Positions 1 through 19,043 of a stretch of DNA of 64,000 bases are shown one piece after another. The position numbers and the translations under genes were made by a program. Position 1 is the first letter of the stretch; each line of letters opens with the position of its first letter. The notes under the pieces were generated by a model, which ran no database searches, was not told the DNA's origin, and saw nothing but the letters and a program-made list of their open reading frames with translations. The DNA comes from Picochlorum sp. SENEW3 (Eukaryota), in NCBI GenBank assembly GCA_034226945.1, contig CP120457.1, positions 186,001 to 250,000 of the forward strand. Direction: 5' to 3'.

Positions 1-325
1 TAGACTTCATCACAAGCTCTGGCCTCATCACACCCATGGCTGCTATACCCACCCCAGACTTGGCTGTCCCATAGGCAGCTCCAAAGCATGAGAAAATAAT
101 GGCCGATGCCGCTCCCAAATATCCAAAGAATGGAGCAATCTGCACACCATGATCATCCATGCATCAGTCATCATACAACTATACGTTCCCAATCCGCTGC
201 TGCCACATCCCGTGAGACATGGACCAACAGCCACCCCGTCAGCCACACAATCCCCAAACCCCACCCCCTCAACCCATACAAATACCATAGAAACCCACCT
301 GATCTCCGTTCCACTCCGCTGCCAT
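1..325 (-). CDS. VHA-c: V-type H+-ATPase 16-kDa proteolipid subunit c, 5' part (runs off the window start); exons 325-299 and 139-<1
   Basis: Not in the ORF track. The spliced translation [55 protein letters not shown] is the hallmark V-ATPase c N-terminus. Intron GTGGGT...GTGCAG at 298-140. Confidence 0.95.
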
Positions 326-1016
326 GATTTATTACGTCCGTGCGTGATACCAACACAAATCTACTCGATCAATCAAGCGTCACTGGATCGATCAACCAAG
401 CAATGGTTTCTCCCACTATATATCTACTATATAAGAAGAATTGAGAGCCCGGCTATGCGTATAGGATACGTTACAGATACAACGAGGACCAACGTCAGAT
501 GCTCGTTCGACCAACACCAGCGTCCTGTATACTCGTCAATACGATGCAGAGAGTGATGATATGGCTCTATCCAAGCATACAATACTAGTATGTAATACTA
601 TTATAGTACGAATGACCACCCGTGCTGCTTGGGTGCACTCCGGAGACCGACCATGAAGTAAATATACATGGTACCGGTCAAAACTATAGTTTCATGGGAT
701 GACTATTCATGCTACAACGATGCCCTACCACGGAGGCACCGCCCCTGTCAGCAGAGTCACAAGACCGAAGGGGCTTGATCCATCTAGAATCTTTCGCCTG
801 GACTGTGGACATTCCAATTCACGTGGATTGTTAGGGTCTGACTGACGATACCTCTTCTGTATTCTATAGTTGAATAAGAATTCACATGTACTAGAAATTT
901 TGCGTACTCTATAGAGAGAGCACCAAAGGAAGGAGAAGAAAACAGACTATCAATCAGTCAATTGGCAATTGGAATAATTCTTCTGGAAGAGAGCACAGGA
1001 GTTCAGGCTGACGTGA

Positions 1017-3044
1017 ATGAAACGAGAGGTTCGGTTTGCATTACGTCAGATTGTAAGGAATGCATGTTCTCATGCGAAGGGTGTGCCCAATGTGAATGGC
1101 AGTGGAGGAGGCGTGGTCTCGGAACCATGGCATAGGGCTTTTGGCTCTCGAGGAATCTGTCACGGTGGAGGGGGTGGCATGGGGTATCGGTCTGGTGATT
1201 CCCATGCTTATTATGGGCAATATGTGCATATGAATAGGTATCATGATGGGCGGAGCAGCAATGGTGGGGTTGTTGGGGCCATGCGATTGTTGAACGACGG
1301 CATGTTCCCCCGCGGCTGTGGAGGGGAGTGCGTGGGGAGATCGAGGCCGTCGCATGTGTACATGGGATATCGGGAGTACTATGGGACTCCTCATGATATG
1401 CGAGCATTGACGGCGGAGGAGGAGCAGGCGGAGCATATGGACCCAAGTTTTGCCAGGGGGACGCCGAGTGTGTGTGTGGATGCGCATGCGACCATGGTGG
1501 AGGAGATGGATGTTCCGCTGGATTTTGATGATCCAAAGGCTGCGTTTGCGAGTAAGACGACGTGGGAGATTATGCGATCGCTGATTGTGTTTCGAGTGTG
1601 TAAGATTTCATGGTTGGTGCAAAAGGCTGATACAGCGTTGAAGTGGAGCAAGCGGTTGTTTACGCCGTACCTGGTGAACTTTGTGGTGAAGAACTCGTTT
1701 TATCAGCAGTTTGTGGCGGGGGCTGATGCGGAGGGTATTCGGCCTGTGATGGAGCATTTGGAGAGGAATGGGATTCATTCTGTGTTGGACTATGCGGCAG
1801 AGGATGATGTGGATGAGGAGACTGGGGTGGCGCAGAGTCGAGCGTTGGGGGGTATTTCGAGTGCGGAGGATTTGAGGATCAGTACTGTTGTAGCGAGGAC
1901 GTACAGATATGAGGATGAGGAGGCTTGTGATAAGAGGATGAATAATTTCCTGAAGAGTATCAAAGCTGCTGGGTTGGTGGATAGGCAAGGGTTTACGGCC
2001 ATCAAAGTGACGGCGTTGGGAATGCCGATGCTGTTGGAGAGAGTTTCAAATGCTCTTTTGGCTGTTCGAGACTTGTTCAAGCAGTTGGATGAGAATGGTG
2101 ATGGTCACTTGGATGTGGATGAGTTCAAGCGGGTGTGCAAAACCATTTTTAATGCAAGCTCTGATGATTTACACCGACTGTTTGACCGTTTGGATACTGA
2201 CCATGATGGAAAAGTGGACTACTTGGCCTTTACAAAGGGGATTACTGTGTACAGAGGAACTGAAATTGCATCTCGTTGTAAAGAGGAGGGTCCCTTTTCG
2301 AGAGCAGCGTTGGACGAGGAGGAGTTGCGGTTGCTCGATAATATGCTGCGGCGTGTAAATATTCTCGCCGAGGCTGCTGTGGATGCTGGAGTGAGGTTGA
2401 TGGTGGATGCCGAGCATTCATATTTCCAGCCAGCGATTGATTCTGTGGTGACGGAACTTCAGAGAAAGTTTAATAAGAACGAGCCACGCGTGTACAATAC
2501 ATATCAATGTTATTTGAAGGATTCTCACGATAGAATTTTGGTGGATTTGGAGAGGTCTCGTCGTGAGGGATACAAGTTTGGATGCAAATTGGTACGAGGT
2601 GCATACATGGTATTGGAGAGGGAGAGAGCGGCAGAAAAGGGGTATCCCTCGCCCGTGTGGGATACCAAAGAAGAAACTCACGCATGTTATGATGGAGCTG
2701 TGGCGATGCTGTTGCCGTGGGTACAGAATAACGGTGCTGAATTCATGGTTGCCTCTCATAATCAGAGGTCTGTGGAGCTTGCGGTGGCAGGTATGAAGGC
2801 CAGTGGGTTGCCACCGGATGCACCAGTCTACTTTGGACAGCTCTTGGGAATGGCTGATAATTTGACGTATACGTTGGGCGCCCATGGGTATGGTGCATAC
2901 AAGTATGTTCCTTTTGGAAGCGTCGATGAGGTCATGCCATATTTGATTCGAAGAGCTCAGGAGAATAGCGATGTTCTCGGAGGGATTGCAAAGGAGACAA
3001 AAATGTTGCGATCTGAATTGAAAAGACGATTGCTTCCTTTCTGA
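1017..3044 (+). CDS. PRODH: Proline dehydrogenase (mitochondrial) with an EF-hand insertion
   Basis: Motifs LDYAAE, VDAEHSYFQP, YNTYQCYLKD, KLVRGAY, ASHN, GQLLGM, YKYVPFG, PYLIRRAQEN. Two DxxxDG EF-hand loops. Confidence 0.95.
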   Translation: MKREVRFALRQIVRNACSHAKGVPNVNGSGGGVVSEPWHRAFGSRGICHGGGGGMGYRSGDSHAYYGQYVHMNRYHDGRSSNGGVVGAMRLLNDGMFPRGCGGECVGRSRPSHVYMGYREYYGTPHDMRALTAEEEQAEHMDPSFARGTPSVCVDAHATMVEEMDVPLDFDDPKAAFASKTTWEIMRSLIVFRVCKISWLVQKADTALKWSKRLFTPYLVNFVVKNSFYQQFVAGADAEGIRPVMEHLERNGIHSVLDYAAEDDVDEETGVAQSRALGGISSAEDLRISTVVARTYRYEDEEACDKRMNNFLKSIKAAGLVDRQGFTAIKVTALGMPMLLERVSNALLAVRDLFKQLDENGDGHLDVDEFKRVCKTIFNASSDDLHRLFDRLDTDHDGKVDYLAFTKGITVYRGTEIASRCKEEGPFSRAALDEEELRLLDNMLRRVNILAEAAVDAGVRLMVDAEHSYFQPAIDSVVTELQRKFNKNEPRVYNTYQCYLKDSHDRILVDLERSRREGYKFGCKLVRGAYMVLERERAAEKGYPSPVWDTKEETHACYDGAVAMLLPWVQNNGAEFMVASHNQRSVELAVAGMKASGLPPDAPVYFGQLLGMADNLTYTLGAHGYGAYKYVPFGSVDEVMPYLIRRAQENSDVLGGIAKETKMLRSELKRRLLPF

Positions 3045-11650: not shown

Positions 11651-12841
11651 ATGACCATGACAATGCACCGAGTGCTCCTTCTGCTCTTCTTAGCGCAATG
11701 CGCTCTTGCGAGGCTCAAGCCAATATTCTCATTCTCTGATCAAGAGGACGCTATCGCCTGGAGCAAAGAAGTCCTCAAGCTGAAGGAGCAGTATGACTCC
11801 AACAACGAGGAGGAGGCTCTTGCTGCGAGGAAAGAGGTCGCAACGCTCAGTCGGGAGTGGCGCGAAGAATTTGACGTGAAATGGCCTGAAAAGCTAGTAT
11901 CAGAGAAGTTCAGGATCTTCACGAACAATCTGTGGTATGTGGGGAAGAAGAATATCAGACTGGCAGAGGCAAAGAGTCCTTGGTGGGTGTCACAGGGCAA
12001 GTTTGCTGACCTGACCTTTTCTCAATTCAGGAGAGAATATCTGATTGATGACCTTGTCAGACCGAGGAAAGACATTTTCTTGTACAAATTCAGAATCAGA
12101 ATATTTAGGTGCTTTGACTGGAGGAATCGGGATGTTGTGACTGGTGTCAGGAATCAAGGAGCGTGTGGGTCTTGCTGGGCCTTTGCCGCCATCGCTACCA
12201 TCGAGTCCAGGTACTTGATCGAGAATGGAGAGACTGTGGATGAGAATCCGATCAATTTGTCCGAGCAGCAGTTGGTGGACTGCGTGAGATCACCCAGGAG
12301 GGATTTCAGCAATGACAGGTATGACTCTGTTGGTTGCTCGGGAGGGTACTCCAACGAGGCGATGGAGTATGTTCGCCAGCACAATGTCACCTATGAGTCA
12401 GTCTATCCATACACTGCGTCTAATGGTGAGTGCAATCAAAATCCGCTGGACGGGTCAAGTCCTGCACCAGCTATCGAACTGGGAGGTCCAATTCCAGGAT
12501 GGAGTTACTACTCAGGGGGCAACTCTACCATCATCAAATCGCTGGTCAATGTGGCCCCTGTGGTCAACTACATCAGGGTAGAAGCTGCTTTCCAGTTGTA
12601 CAATGGTGGGGTCATGGATACAGCTTGTGCCAATCAGGGAGTCAATCATGCTACTGCAATCGTTGGGTACTGCTCCAGTCAGCTTTTGTTTGGAAACTTC
12701 AACTATTGGATTGTGAAAAACAGCTGGGGAACTGGTTGGGGAGAAAATGGATTCTATAGAATTCAAACTGTCCGAAATGGGGCAGGTATCTGCCAGAGCC
12801 AATCAAGCATTTTCCAGCCAACAAAGCCAAGGGATGCTTGA
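11651..12841 (+). CDS. Secreted papain-family (C1A) cysteine protease, copy 1
   Basis: Signal peptide, I29-like prodomain (FADLT), QGACGSCWAF, LSEQQLVDC, NHA, VKNSWG. Confidence 0.93.
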   Translation: MTMTMHRVLLLLFLAQCALARLKPIFSFSDQEDAIAWSKEVLKLKEQYDSNNEEEALAARKEVATLSREWREEFDVKWPEKLVSEKFRIFTNNLWYVGKKNIRLAEAKSPWWVSQGKFADLTFSQFRREYLIDDLVRPRKDIFLYKFRIRIFRCFDWRNRDVVTGVRNQGACGSCWAFAAIATIESRYLIENGETVDENPINLSEQQLVDCVRSPRRDFSNDRYDSVGCSGGYSNEAMEYVRQHNVTYESVYPYTASNGECNQNPLDGSSPAPAIELGGPIPGWSYYSGGNSTIIKSLVNVAPVVNYIRVEAAFQLYNGGVMDTACANQGVNHATAIVGYCSSQLLFGNFNYWIVKNSWGTGWGENGFYRIQTVRNGAGICQSQSSIFQPTKPRDA

Positions 12842-13570: not shown

Positions 13571-14755
13571 ATGACAATGCACCGAGTGCTCCTTCTGCTC
13601 TTCTTGGCGCAATGCGCTCTTGCGAGGCTCAAGCCAATATTCTCATTCTCTGATCAAGAGGACGCTATCGCCTGGAGCGAAGACGTCCTCAAGCTGAAGA
13701 AGCAGTATGACTCCAAAAACGAGAAGGAGGCTCTTGCTGCGAGGAAAGAGGTCGCAACGCTCAGTCGGGAGTGGCGCGAAGAATTTGACGTGAAATGGTC
13801 TACAAAATTACTTCAGAAAAAGCTCAAGGTGTTCACGGACAACTTATGGTATGTTGGGGAGAAGAATGTGGAGTTGGCCAAGGCAAAGAGCCCATGGTGG
13901 GTGTCACAGGGCAAGTTTGCAGACCTGACCTTTTCTCAATTCAGGAGAGAATATCTGATTGAAGACCTCAAAGTACCAAAGTTTGACTTTGATCTAGAGG
14001 ACTTGAAGATCAGGTTGTTCAGGTGCTTTGACTGGAGGGATGAAGATGTTGTGACTGCTGTCAGGAATCAAGGAGCATGTGGGTCTTGCTGGGCCTTTGC
14101 CGCCATCGCTACCATCGAGTCGAGGTACTTGATCGAGAATGGAGAGACTGTGGATGAGAATCCGATCAATTTGTCCGAGCAGCAGTTGGTGGACTGCGTG
14201 AGATCACCGAGGAGGGATTTGAACAATGACAGGTATGACTCTGGTGGCTGCACAGGGGGATGGTCCGAGGAGGCCATGGAGTATGTTCGCCAGCATAATG
14301 TCACCTATGAATCCGCCTATCCATATACTGCATCGAATGGTGTTTGCAATCAAAATCCACTGGACGGGTCAAGTCCTGAACCAGCAATGACCTTGGGGGG
14401 TCCAAATCCAGGATGGAGTGGCTATTCAGGGGGCAACTCTACCATCATTAAATCTCTACTTGCTGTATCGCCTGTGGCAAACTACATCAGGGTGGAGAAT
14501 GGTTTCCAGTTGTACAATGGTGGGGTCATGGATACAGCATGTGCAGGTCAGGGCATTAATCATGCTACTGCAATTGTTGGATACTGCAACAGCAAGCTTC
14601 TTTTTGGAAACTTCAACTATTGGATTGTGAAAAACAGCTGGGGAACTCGCTGGGGTGAAGATGGCTATTACAGGATTCAAACTCGGCGAAGCGGGGCAGG
14701 TGTTTGTGAAAGCCAGTCAAGCATTTTCCAGCCAACAATACCTACAGAGGCTTGA
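13571..14755 (+). CDS. Secreted papain-family (C1A) cysteine protease, copy 2 (tandem paralog)
   Basis: Same motifs as copy 1, with long stretches of near-identical nucleotide sequence. Confidence 0.93.
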   Translation: MTMHRVLLLLFLAQCALARLKPIFSFSDQEDAIAWSEDVLKLKKQYDSKNEKEALAARKEVATLSREWREEFDVKWSTKLLQKKLKVFTDNLWYVGEKNVELAKAKSPWWVSQGKFADLTFSQFRREYLIEDLKVPKFDFDLEDLKIRLFRCFDWRDEDVVTAVRNQGACGSCWAFAAIATIESRYLIENGETVDENPINLSEQQLVDCVRSPRRDLNNDRYDSGGCTGGWSEEAMEYVRQHNVTYESAYPYTASNGVCNQNPLDGSSPEPAMTLGGPNPGWSGYSGGNSTIIKSLLAVSPVANYIRVENGFQLYNGGVMDTACAGQGINHATAIVGYCNSKLLFGNFNYWIVKNSWGTRWGEDGYYRIQTRRSGAGVCESQSSIFQPTIPTEA

Positions 14756-15190
14756 TGATATCTTTTTTGGAGCCGTGTATTCTGCACGCCAATGACTTTT
14801 TCTCTCCTGCTCCTTTTCTGTATTTTTCAGGAGTCGAAGAACTTTCAGAGACGCGATGCTCATGTCATTGTTTTGAAGCACTGTCACTGATGAGAGGGAT
14901 CATCTTTGTTTGAATAGGCTAGTAGGTGACACCAGATGCTTGATCCATTGCCTCATGATTGGCATCTGTCTCATTCTATTCCTCTATGCGTTTCTCGGAT
15001 TGAATAGATTGCATTTCTCTATTGATAATATAATTTAAAAGATGTGATTTCACATTGCCTTTCTAGGCAACTTGATGATACCAGCAGGTGTGTTATGACC
15101 ACATGTAGCATGTGGAACTAATTCTGAGTACAAGAATTGCACACTGACTGAATACATCCAAGGCAAATGTTTGAAGTGAAGCGAGGAGAC

Positions 15191-15208
15191 AAAAAAAGCT
15201 AAAGAAAA
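15191..15208 (-). terminator. Pol III oligo(dT) terminator of the permuted tRNA gene
   Basis: TTTTCTTTAGCTTTTTTT on the minus strand right after the 5' half. Confidence 0.7.
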
Positions 15209-15211
15209 GTA

Positions 15212-15297
15212 TGGCAAGCGGACGTAATAGCCGTTATACCACTGGAGCTCAGAAGTTAGATCTGCTCCAGCCCGGAGTCGAACCGGGGTATCCCGCT
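15212..15297 (-). tRNA. trnG-GCC: Circularly permuted tRNA-Gly(GCC): 3' half 15297-15263, 14-nt spacer, 5' half 15248-15212
   Basis: 3' half A GCGGG ATAC CCCGG TTCGACT CCGGG CTGGAGC A precedes 5' half GCTCCAG TG GTATAACGGCTATTAC G TCCGC TT GCC A. Reassembly gives a 72-nt cloverleaf with a perfect 7-bp acceptor stem. Oligo-T tracts follow. Confidence 0.92.
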
Positions 15298-15627
15298 ATT
15301 TACTAAGTTGACAATCAGTTGTAAGAGAGGAATTTCCTATTCTATATGTAGCGTATGATTACATTATGACAACCTTTTGGCCCCCCGTTTCGGGCCATTC
15401 ATGGGTAGAAATGATGACATCAAACTTATCAATGAGTTCTATATCATCCAAAATGGTACCTGAGATGGTAGAGACACTAGAAACTACGAAAGAACGCGAA
15501 GCAGCTTTGGAAGTTCTGTACTACTCATTCACCTGATCGATTAGGTATGGATATACATGCGAAAGAATTCGAGATTCTTTACATTGGTATGAAATTAAAT
15601 CCGGGCATCATGAAAGGCAATCAACAA

Positions 15628-16107
15628 TCAAAAGAAACAAGCACCTCCACCCTGGTGCTCCAAGGCCAACAGCACTGCCCACGCCAGCATGGCTGCCCGC
15701 CCATTCACCTTCTCAGCTCGAACCGACATAAATCCGAAATCTTCGTCCTTAACATTCTTCAGAATCGGTATCATCGACGCCCAAATCATCAAGCAGCAAA
15801 GGGCAACGTAGCCATAGTTGGGATTCAAGAACTGCTCAACTATGGATTCAGAGGTTTCCATCTCCCGCAACGCCATGGGAAAAAACATAAGCATGGATAA
15901 TCTGCAGTTGATACGTTCCGGAGCGGGGCCAAATACTCCCATGGCTTCAAACAGTGACAACTTGTTTCTAGGTACCACGACGGAGCCAGTCGTGCCTGTG
16001 GTGCCATTGGAAGCTTTGGTCCTCATATTTTGTAATCTCACTAAATTTGGTACAGATTGTGTGGACCGGATCGGCAATGTGCGCAATCCTTGTGCCAACG
16101 ACGACAT
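15628..16107 (-). CDS. ELIP-like / LHC-superfamily stress protein
   Basis: Two LHC motifs (PERINCRLSML, AEKVNGRAAML) after a transit-peptide-like N-terminus. Likely start MSSLAQ at 16107. Confidence 0.85.
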   Translation of the reverse strand: MSSLAQGLRTLPIRSTQSVPNLVRLQNMRTKASNGTTGTTGSVVVPRNKLSLFEAMGVFGPAPERINCRLSMLMFFPMALREMETSESIVEQFLNPNYGYVALCCLMIWASMIPILKNVKDEDFGFMSVRAEKVNGRAAMLAWAVLLALEHQGGGACFF

Positions 16108-16186
16108 TGCTAAACTTTCTAAGTGCTGTATAATATGCTCTATATGCGTGTATACGATGGTATTCTTACCATATGAAATGCTATAA

Positions 16187-19043
16187 TCAATAAAAATTCT
16201 TGGTTTTTCCAACAATGGCCTCCAGAGATGCTCCCGGGCTGAACTCGGTGCCTCCATGGATCTTCTCGAGGACCACAAGTTCCTGGCCTGCCTCCTGAAC
16301 GGTCTCAGGATTCAGGAAAAGGCTACCGCAGTGAGCCAGGACCATGGTTATGTCTTTCTCTATGGATGGGAATCTATTTGATTTGCACCGCATCAGAAAA
16401 TCTCGCACGAGCAGCTCGCAGTAGTGGACCCTTTGGAAATGTGGGTTCTCCACCGAAGCACCTCCTCCCCATTCAATCTTCCATGGGGATTTGGGCACTT
16501 GGTATCCGACTCCTTGTCTCAATTTGAAATGCAGCTTTGACGGACCTTCCCGTCGGGCAAGCATTGTCACCTTTCTACCTTCCTCCAGGCGTACAGCCCT
16601 GTCAAGGTACTGTACTGCCTGTCCCCAGTAGTGGCCATGCTCTGTAAAGGGATTGTTTGAAATTGTGTCAACATCATCCAAATGCAAGTCAAACCAAAAC
16701 ATGACTGCATTTAACAGTCCAGATGTTTTCACTTGCAACTTGAGGAGTTTTTCACGAATGTTTTTGCGGTCCTCTGAATCAAAGAACACCTCTGTAACCT
16801 TGACAGGATCAGTGATTGCTCTGTACTGGAAGTCCCTAGCATCCACAACCTCGTAGCTCGAATCCCATCGATACCTATCAAAGCATGCCAGCTTTACACC
16901 TTCCATGGGTCTGGTGACAGCCTCAATGCCCATGCAGTATACCGTTGCTGCCTGGGGAATGACTTTTGCGCCTGGTTGGACAACCTTTCTCCTTGTGAGG
17001 CTAAGGATGTACTCAAACTGATTCCCCAACAAACCTGCATCAAACATGTCAGCAATGACCACGTTCGTTCCCAAGGGTCGCACTTCTTTTCCTCTCTGTA
17101 ATAGGGCGGCATCCCGGTGTACTACTGATATCTTTTTTGAATACCCACTTGCCGCGGCAGTCTTCCTGGCAATATCACACAAAGAAGCATGCAAGTCACA
17201 GGCGACGACAGACGTCGCTCCGGCTTTCGCAGCAGAAATGGCCAAGATACCTGTTCCAGTCCCAATATCAAGGACATGGGCTTCCCCTGATTCTTCCAAT
17301 ACTTGCTTGATTGTTCTGTCAATAGCTCTCTGATATCTCTGAATCCTTGACTCATCCCTCAACATTCCAAAGTGTTCATGTGGGAAGGATGCGTCTCTCT
17401 TGGCCAGACTAATATAATCAGCGCTTTCAATATCAAACTGCATCCTGACTGTATTGTGGGTCGCTAGGATTGGGATGATGGTGTCCTTGGCCACGCTCAA
17501 CTCTCCAGCCAGATACTGGATACCTGGTTGGAGGGACTCTGATTCCAAGCTGTTCAGATACACGTCTCCATACAAATGTATTTCATACCAAAACATGATG
17601 CCGTTCAACCTTCCATCCTGTGTGAATGTGACGTCCAAAGTCTTTGTCTCACTCTTTGTAGGAGGATTGCCAAAGTCAAAGTACCATGCTTCAATGGGAT
17701 CTGATAAGGCTTTGACGCAGTCTTTGTTCACTGTACCGCATGGAACTTGATTTGGGCACCACCTGTACAAATTCGCTGAGCTCATATCGACACCCGCCAC
17801 GTGGTTGACTCTCAATTCAACAGCCTGGGCATACACAGTTGCTGACGCTGGCATGATGATGTGACGCTCCGGGATCATCAATTCGCTCAGACTGTGCTGA
17901 ATCGCCGGAATGAGACCACTAGAAAGAATTTCCTTGTCAAATATATTCGCAATGAGGAGATTGCAGCAGATCTCAACGTCAGTATTGATTCTCAAATCCG
18001 TTGGCCGTTTGTACACAATACTGTACAAATCCTCATCAACTTCATTCTCCATCATCGTCTCTTTACACGCCAATGCCAGATACAACCATCGCTCGACGGC
18101 GGTCACGTGTCTTGCGCCAGCGCGAAGGGCGTGTATCGCCTGCACCCCTGCCCCTGCCCCCAAATTCAAAACTCGGCAGTCTGTATCAGAGGATTCAAAA
18201 TAATCAACTGCTTGCTCGATCGCTCGCCTATACTGTCTATTAAAATATGGATCCTGAAGCTGCTTGAGAATCCTTTTGGGCATTCGTATATCCGATTGGA
18301 CCGTCATATAATTGTAGGTATCTTTGATATGATGATCATTTTCCGCTTGGAATGGCGTCAGGAAGCTCACTGGAAGCAAATCATCCGTCTTAATCCTATG
18401 CAGCGGAGCTGCATATGGATGGTAGGAAATTTTTTGAGAAGCATGGGGATACGTAATCGTCCGATGCTCCTGGCTCTTTCCCTCTGCGAGGTCCTTGAGA
18501 ATGGCTTGATTTGCCTTCTCCAGCCCCAGCTTGAGATCAGGATTAAATGCATCCATCGACAGTCCTTTTTCAAAAACCCCAACAGCCTCACGATATCTAC
18601 CCAATCCCATCAACGCCGACCCTTTTCGGTGAAATGCTTTGATGTACGACGACGACCCTTTGAAATTCCTCCGCAACGATGACTGTGCCAAAAGCATACT
18701 CCTCTCAGCATGCCACAGAGCCTCCTCATACTTTTCCAATTTCAAATACGCTGCTGAGCAATTCCCATGGCATATGTACATCTCGGGATGCGTCAAATTA
18801 TTCTTCTTTGCCTTCTCAAACATGATGGTATAGATGGCAATGGCATCCTCCAACTTGTTCTCCTTGTACAGGGCAGTAGCCTTGGTATTCAGGGAAGACA
18901 GGGGCAAATCCATGATTTTAACCTGTATTTAACAAACATATATGTGATTGTAGGCGCCCGAGGTGGCATTTTCAAGCTCTCTTCCTGACTATACGTACCT
19001 GTTGGGACGCCTTGTCCAGTTGACCAACACCGTCCTCGTCCAT
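16187..19043 (-). CDS. TPR-repeat plus tandem PRMT-fold protein (PRMT7/PRMT9-like); exons 19043-18999 and 18922-16187
   Basis: N-terminal TPRs; two SAM-binding modules (VLNLGAGAG; VLDIGTGTG), WFDL and HYWGQ motifs. In-frame first exon MDEDGVGQLDKASQQ with a GTACGT...TACAG intron. Confidence 0.85.

Follow-up and report, generated by a model that had tools for sequence, protein, structure and literature searches.

Can a tRNA gene whose two halves stand in reverse order be a working gene? The question is raised by a locus on the minus strand of CP120457.1, within the 64,000-nt stretch of DNA that was analysed as a whole (hereafter the window, in which all positions are counted). A preliminary description had read this locus as a circularly permuted tRNA-Gly(GCC) gene, and we reproduced its coordinates and sequence for both halves and for the spacer between them exactly on the minus strand (Table 1). 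In minus-strand order the 3' half comes first, followed by the spacer and then by the 5' half, i.e. the arrangement is permuted. We joined the halves by script from their coordinates and gave the product to ARAGORN, which accepted it as a 72-nt tRNA-Gly(gcc), so that the gene structure, the break at 37/38 and the isotype proposed earlier are borne out. The joined tRNA has a perfect acceptor stem of 7 bp, a T stem of 5 bp, an anticodon stem of 5 bp in which one pair is U:G, and a D stem with 3 bp and U:U. The two halves meet at 37/38: the 5' half stops at A37, right after GCC, and the 3' half opens with A38 and runs on into the anticodon stem's 3' strand. U8, G18G19, U33, T54-Psi55-C56, A58 and G53:C61, the universal tRNA elements, can all be read in the joined sequence. 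A73 together with C2:G71 forms the identity set of eukaryotic cytosolic tRNA-Gly, and both are found here along with the anticodon GCC; CCA is not encoded, as the 3' half ends at the discriminator A73. From this anatomy and the comparisons described below, we consider it very probable that the locus works as a nuclear gene for cytosolic tRNA-Gly(GCC), circularly permuted in the type II manner (37/38), in a Picochlorum-like alga.

Table 1. The permuted tRNA-Gly(GCC) gene and its surroundings. Positions are those of the 64,000-nt window; negative numbers count upstream of A38 and positive numbers count past A37.
Feature	Position	Strand	Description
Papain-family (Peptidase_C1) protease genes	11651-12841 and 13571-14755	(+)	I29-like propeptide
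T7 run	15197-15191	(-)	+16 to +22
Trailer past A37	15199-15211	(-)	contains the first Pol III-type T run
T4 run	15208-15205	(-)	+4 to +7
tRNA-Gly(GCC) 5' half	15248-15212	(-)	37 nt, G1 to A37; acceptor 5' strand, U8, D arm (A box), anticodon-stem 5' strand, loop U32-A37 with anticodon GCC
Spacer between halves	15262-15249	(-)	14 nt, links A73 to G1
tRNA-Gly(GCC) 3' half	15297-15263	(-)	35 nt, A38 to A73; A38, anticodon-stem 3' strand, 4-nt variable loop, whole T arm (B box), acceptor 3' strand, A73
Proximal leader	15298-15303	(-)	GTAA at -6 to -3, AT at -2/-1
TATA-like ATATAGAA	15340-15347	(-)	-50 to -43, i.e. 43-50 nt upstream of A38; candidate promoter element
ELIP/LHC-like ORF	15628-16257	(-)	weak Chloroa_b-bind match exactly at cut-off
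PRMT7-like ORF	16187-18913	(-)	

Standard scanners miss the gene, as had been anticipated. Run on the intact window, ARAGORN returned a single call, a spurious 'tRNA-??? (acaa)' with a 4-base anticodon at 15263-15352(-), which takes over the genuine T arm and acceptor strand of the permuted gene, and Rfam at its gathering threshold returned 0 families across the 64 kb. Automated annotation could log 15263-15352(-) as a pseudo or undetermined tRNA. A permissive Rfam scan of 15000-15500 gave four sub-threshold matches, all at chance level. A match to YrlA, a tRNA-like Y RNA (E = 2.7), was discarded, as it mirrors the T arm preceding the D arm and nothing else. In the intergenic sequence upstream of the tRNA gene, at 15406-15441 (+), there is a TGATGA box with weak C/D-box snoRNA-like matches (SNORD18, E = 4.9; sR17, E = 8.7), far under the gathering score, which are probably due to chance.

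How readily such an arrangement arises by chance was controlled for in two ways. Firstly, we moved the 35/14/37 geometry along both strands, position by position, through the whole window, and the resulting 127,830 pseudo-joins were scored by ARAGORN. Sixteen were accepted (16/127,830), all of them at the permuted tRNA-Gly locus and within a few bases of its register; elsewhere in the window no pseudo-join was accepted as a tRNA. Secondly, in a looser scan we required a T arm with a stem of 5 bp and, 0-80 nt further on, a 7-bp stretch complementary to the bases that come after the T arm, that is, an acceptor complement. It found two sites in the window, the tRNA-Gly locus and a weak, G:U-rich site at 2040(+) that has no D arm, while 50 shuffles gave a mean of 0.26 sites and a maximum of 2. 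A SINE or repeat origin is unsupported within the window, since the T-arm scan yields one tRNA-like unit in 64 kb.

The permuted order could also have been created in assembly, for example by mis-collapse of a tandem tRNA array, a danger of which the preliminary description had warned. About 20 sequencing runs from 9 studies contain part of 15000-15600, none of them recorded as RNA, and we aligned the Logan contigs of four of these (X3, X8, X9 and X14) to 14800-15800. In X3, which comes from a different study, one contig (record 5, 15211-15298, 88 nt) bridges the permuted unit with zero differences, and records 3 and 7 overlap it, one on each side. The depths of the X3 contigs sum to the whole bin depth, which implies that no other contig of this run spans the spacer. 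Downstream of the unit, X3 holds record 3 (14841-15240), without differences, and record 4 (14915-15240), with 22 other letters and 6 gaps; upstream it holds record 7 (15269-15413), with 1 difference, and record 6, with 17 other letters in 145. The first listed variants are at 15299 (leader position -2) upstream and a 1-nt deletion at 15210 downstream, so the divergence in X3 halts where the permuted unit starts and stops. In the run X8 (organism B), 15227-15289 is covered by two contigs, of 66 and 63 nt, which are distinguished by an insertion behind 15256, i.e. within the spacer; neither half shows any difference, and records 14-17 reproduce the permuted order. X14, a run only guessed to be RNA, contains a contig of depth 8 over 14933-15270 and one of depth 567 over the ELIP-like gene, depths from which neither strand nor transcript can be inferred. 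In none of the four runs did we find a joint to the conventional order, 5' half then 3' half, which is weak evidence given that contigs can drop rare variants. Because contigs from runs of other studies (X3 and X8) bridge the same order, and because an unrelated metagenome contig, L002 (see below), has it as well, an assembly artefact is so improbable that it can practically be set aside; the independent contigs bear no sign of one.

Each of the runs X3 and X8 contains two sequence versions over 14800-15800, with an intergenic divergence of ~7-15% and several indels, which suggests that the alga is diploid and heterozygous or that strains of it co-occur.

The genes around the locus identify its host. 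The flanking ORFs are long and largely uninterrupted; their products are a HAD hydrolase, a tandem pair of papain-family proteases, an ELIP/LHC-like protein and a TPR-PRMT7-like methyltransferase. The last of these shares 99% identity with a protein that is named from Picochlorum sp. BPE23, and its next named relatives are from Micractinium, Coccomyxa, Auxenochlorella and other trebouxiophytes. Judged by these proteins, the host is a Picochlorum-like trebouxiophyte and hence a core chlorophyte, a lineage (Trebouxiophyceae) missing from the permuted-tRNA lineages that had been listed when the locus was first described. The tRNA unit lies on the same strand as the ELIP-like gene, ~330 nt past the stop codon of the latter. 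If the first ATG is taken as the start, the ELIP/LHC-like ORF overlaps the end of the PRMT7-like ORF by ~70 nt; its true start is probably an internal ATG, because the orthologous ORF in L002 is shorter (156 aa). The signal and propeptide N-termini of the two tandem proteases are nearly identical, which suggests that the pair arose by recent tandem duplication.

We searched a metagenome collection for the pattern made of a T-arm part, a gap and a D-arm part in the order of the window, and obtained two loci. One of them, L001, is a chance match to the pattern and contains no tRNA, and the other, L002, carries the same permuted tRNA-Gly(GCC) gene. Viral contigs searched with this pattern yielded 0 matches and prokaryote genomes one, which was rejected as the T arm of an ordinary bacterial tRNA-Cys. 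Synteny in relatives, a check proposed in the preliminary description, is partly preserved: upstream, L002 keeps the ELIP-like gene (81% nucleotide identity over 772 nt, with a Pfam Chloroa_b-bind match) next to the permuted unit, while downstream its neighbour is a Peptidase_M43-like ORF, 18-1493 (-), on the same strand as the tRNA, where the window has the convergent papain-like proteases. Synteny between the two sequences therefore breaks at the tRNA gene.

Comparison of the window with L002 gives a measure of the constraint on each part of the locus. All tRNA positions are identical, 35/35 in the 3' half and 37/37 in the 5' half (72/72 in total). The spacers, of 14 and 18 nt, agree in only 5 of 18 alignment columns, and the flanks in 51/110 positions far upstream and 26/69 far downstream. 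As a near-neutral yardstick we used the third codon positions of the adjacent ELIP-like gene, of which 90/124 are identical; at this rate, the probability of 72 identical positions out of 72 is ~1e-10. Because the halves are unchanged while spacer, flanks and third positions have diverged, the comparison places both halves under strong purifying selection and leaves the spacer free to vary in sequence and in length, the latter being 14 nt in the window, 18 nt in L002 and longer in one allele of X8. This is the pattern expected if the two halves form one tRNA and the spacer is discarded. Selection on the unit also fits X3, with its zero differences between diverged flanks, and makes the function inferred in the preliminary description likely.

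The same data bear on whether the locus might be a relic, namely the inner 3' half, spacer and 5' half left behind as a non-functional pseudogene when a tandem tRNA-Gly(GCC) pair lost its outer halves. Tandem duplication and subsequent loss is the usual scenario for the origin of permuted tRNA genes, and the weakness of the BHB-like motif described below would also suit a pseudogene. A relic would nevertheless be expected to decay neutrally, yet every tRNA position is kept in L002 with spacer and flanks diverged beyond alignment, the unit in X3 is free of differences while the flanking contigs differ by ~7-15%, and all stems are still perfect. We consequently judge it very unlikely that the gene is dead.

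If the permuted gene is functional, it should be transcribed, and the preliminary description had pointed to a TATA-like element and CAA upstream and to oligo-T downstream. The downstream part of this claim holds up well: the T4 run is conserved, with its first T at +4 in the window and one position earlier, at +3, in L002, and with further T runs after it, and there is no TTTT within the leader and the unit, spacer included, of either sequence. The upstream part fares worse, as neither ATATAGAA nor the CAA at -13 to -11 of the leader is conserved in L002, where there is just AT-rich sequence between about -41 and -31; ATATAGAA may be regarded as a weakly supported candidate for an upstream promoter element. 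Moreover, the permutation places the B box upstream of the A box, in inverted order with respect to a normal tRNA gene. The same problem is raised by a 2014 review of permuted tRNA genes, which proposes TFIIIC-independent transcription driven by upstream elements (PMC3978253).

This inverted box order makes normal TFIIIC-driven transcription doubtful, and could be taken to mean that the unit is conserved for something other than a full-length tRNA: as a TFIIIC or B-box boundary in chromatin, as a source of stable small RNAs resembling tRNA halves, or as a tRNA-like processing signal of the ELIP-like transcript. Such a reading is also in keeping with a unit that lies ~330 nt past the ELIP-like stop on the same strand and retains this adjacency in L002. 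A B-box site, though, would constrain ~11 nt and not all 72, and the perfect complementarity between the halves (7 bp in the acceptor stem, 5 bp in the anticodon stem) is needed only if they fold as one tRNA. The junction, in addition, falls exactly at 37/38 with a conserved pairing partner at -3 for position 32, and Pol III-type T runs follow directly after A37. A role of this other kind is improbable on these grounds, if less so than a relic.

The proposed tRNA requires processing at the 37/38 junction. The model given in the preliminary description was a bulge-helix-bulge (BHB)-like substrate with a 4-bp helix and a 3-nt bulge, in which leader bases G(-6)U(-5)A(-4)A(-3) pair with C35, G34, U33 and U32, A(-2)U(-1) together with A38 form the 3-nt bulge that contains the 3' processing site, and C36-A37|N(+1) contains the 5' site. 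The pair between positions 32 and -3 would correspond to the anticodon-intron pair on which 3' cleavage by eukaryotic splicing endonucleases depends. This helix can form and is conserved: the leader TAGTAA (-8 to -3) is unchanged in L002, and its GTAA is also unchanged in the diverged haplotype of X3. On the other side of the junction, the trailer ACTTTTCTTT is, by eye, common to the window and L002 if a 1-nt indel at +1 is allowed; the MAFFT columns of the trailer are identical at 6/13, a figure lowered by this 1-nt shift.

Energetically, however, the helix is marginal. With the four tRNA stems enforced and the rest of the precursor folded freely, the leader-anticodon helix adds only -0.7 kcal/mol (-26.4 versus -25.7 in the window, -26.1 versus -25.4 in L002) and is not the constrained optimum. 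A rival helix scores better, the optimum (-29.9 in the window, a small hairpin in the spacer included) pairing leader AGUA (-7 to -4) with trailer UACU (+1 to +4), plus U32:A38. The outer helix h' cannot form in the BHB register, where +2 and -7 are both A. Between the window and L002, no covariation was seen in either the BHB-like or the leader-trailer helix, neither of which varies. Shuffling the leader reproduced the helix in 0/500 cases, yet the native sequence did not reproduce it either, so this control is uninformative. Two natural changes, A>T at -2 and loss of the T at +1, are shared by L002 and the second X3 haplotype. Both fall in bulges of the BHB-like model, with -3 to -6 unchanged, and the loss at +1 removes one base pair from the rival leader-trailer helix, which is why we regard a relaxed BHB as modestly supported. 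The junction would accordingly be described as a relaxed and not a full BHB, conserved but thermodynamically marginal. Unmodified tRNA transcripts commonly fail to fold as a cloverleaf in silico, and unconstrained folding of the precursor gave no cloverleaf in the window or L002 (z = -1.9), a result that we set aside as evidence.

Taken together with a functional permuted gene, these features are compatible with the following maturation pathway, which is modelled on that of Cyanidioschyzon merolae, where it has been shown biochemically (PMC3978253). Pol III would make a single RNA containing leader, 3' half, spacer, 5' half and trailer, terminating in the T run that lies 4-7 nt past A37. The halves would fold into a cloverleaf, with the spacer as a loop closing the acceptor stem, and GUAA (-6 to -3) would pair with U32-C35, placing the 3' site in the 3-nt bulge of a relaxed bulge-helix-bulge. 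The tRNA splicing endonuclease would then cut after A37 and before A38, and a ligase would join A37 to A38, giving a circular RNA. Cleavage by RNase P at G1 and by tRNase Z at A73 would release the spacer, and CCA would be added as the last step. By analogy with the red alga, transcription, circularisation, the participation of these enzymes and the eventual aminoacylation of the product may all be supposed to take place in Picochlorum.

The gene has consequences for how tRNA sets of these algae are read. Picochlorum is a fast-growing biotechnology chassis, and its tRNA sets, as well as analyses of codon usage and tRNA adaptation that build on them, are probably incomplete, because standard annotation returns nothing or a bogus 'tRNA-???' at this locus. 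Two Picochlorum genome papers annotate nuclear tRNAs with tRNAscan-SE only, and one of them gives counts of 42 nuclear tRNAs in P. costavermella and of 24 and 75 in two other assemblies. The gene also offers a natural relaxed-BHB substrate for the study of how eukaryotic splicing endonucleases recognize open-ended junctions.

tRNA-Gly(GCC) decodes GGC and GGU. We entertain, with slightly less than even confidence, the further reading that the permuted gene is the only source of tRNA-Gly(GCC) in Picochlorum and that its permutation is independent of that in Mamiellales. If this is true, a core chlorophyte would make an essential and much-used elongator tRNA exclusively via a circular intermediate, from a junction without a full BHB, and permuted tRNA genes would recur in streamlined picoalgal genomes instead of being an ancestral oddity of prasinophytes and red algae. 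Ostreococcus tauri has a gene of the usual, non-permuted layout for Gly(GCC) (supplementary table S4); that the same isotype is conventional there and permuted here supports repeated independent origins in small, compact green-algal genomes.

In the literature covered, which does not extend to the Bathycoccus isotype list, there is no report of a permuted tRNA in Picochlorum or of a permuted Gly(GCC), and on this literature the gene adds both the isotype and the genus to the rare class of permuted tRNA genes. The suggestion made earlier that the combination of isotype and lineage may be undescribed thus stands as regards Gly(GCC) and Picochlorum, but not for trebouxiophytes at large, as a report of permuted tRNA genes already exists for Auxenochlorella UTEX 250-A (Plant Cell 2025, PMC12636532). 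That alga belongs to the same class, and its genes were found in a similar way, starting from an incomplete tRNAscan-SE set and proceeding to the detection of reversed halves (PMC12636532). The example in its Fig. S1 is Pro(UGG), in contrast to Gly(GCC) in Picochlorum, and the covered parts of that paper mention neither Gly(GCC) nor Picochlorum.

The wider class was tabulated in 2014 as 34 permuted genes from six algae and one archaeon (PMC3978253, Table 1); 7 permuted genes of Bathycoccus and 1 of a prasinovirus were reported separately in 2013 (PMC3673656, Table 1). According to the review, the intervening sequences measure 1-74 nt, type II is found more often than any other type in green algae, a T stretch lies downstream and CCA is not encoded (PMC3978253), and the Picochlorum gene, with its 14-nt spacer, type II junction, T stretch and absence of CCA, matches these features. 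With few exceptions the green-algal entries in the table belong to type II, and their spacers measure 5-64 nt; their isotypes are Ser, Leu, Cys, Arg, Asn and iMet, and none is Gly(GCC) (PMC3978253, Table 1). A close likeness is to the genes of Mamiellales, known from Ostreococcus as well as Micromonas (Maruyama et al. 2010, PMC3978253) and from Bathycoccus (PMC3673656), which are likewise nuclear, place the 3' half first, break at 37/38 and have no intron, and which share short spacers (11-64 nt tabulated), AT-rich sequence upstream and a stretch of T downstream. They differ in belonging to prasinophytes, whereas the gene described here is from Trebouxiophyceae, and in their tabulated isotypes, which do not include Gly(GCC).

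Outside the green algae, the archaeon Thermofilum pendens (Chan et al. 2011, PMC3218864; PMC3978253) shares the permuted order and a maturation that depends on splicing endonuclease, but its genes are archaeal, encode iMet and Tyr, are joined at 59/60 (type IV) and carry introns at 37/38 (PMC3978253). Nearer in design is the Gly(CCC) gene of C. merolae (Soma et al. 2007; PMC3978253), which serves the same amino acid and has the type II break at 37/38 and a short spacer (7 bp). In that species, maturation via a circular intermediate and aminoacylation have been demonstrated experimentally (PMC3978253). The C. merolae gene is, by contrast, that of a red alga, has the anticodon CCC and contains an extra intron at 55/56 (PMC3978253), and the junctions of this species are described as BHB motifs, whereas that of Picochlorum could adopt only a relaxed form with no outer helix.
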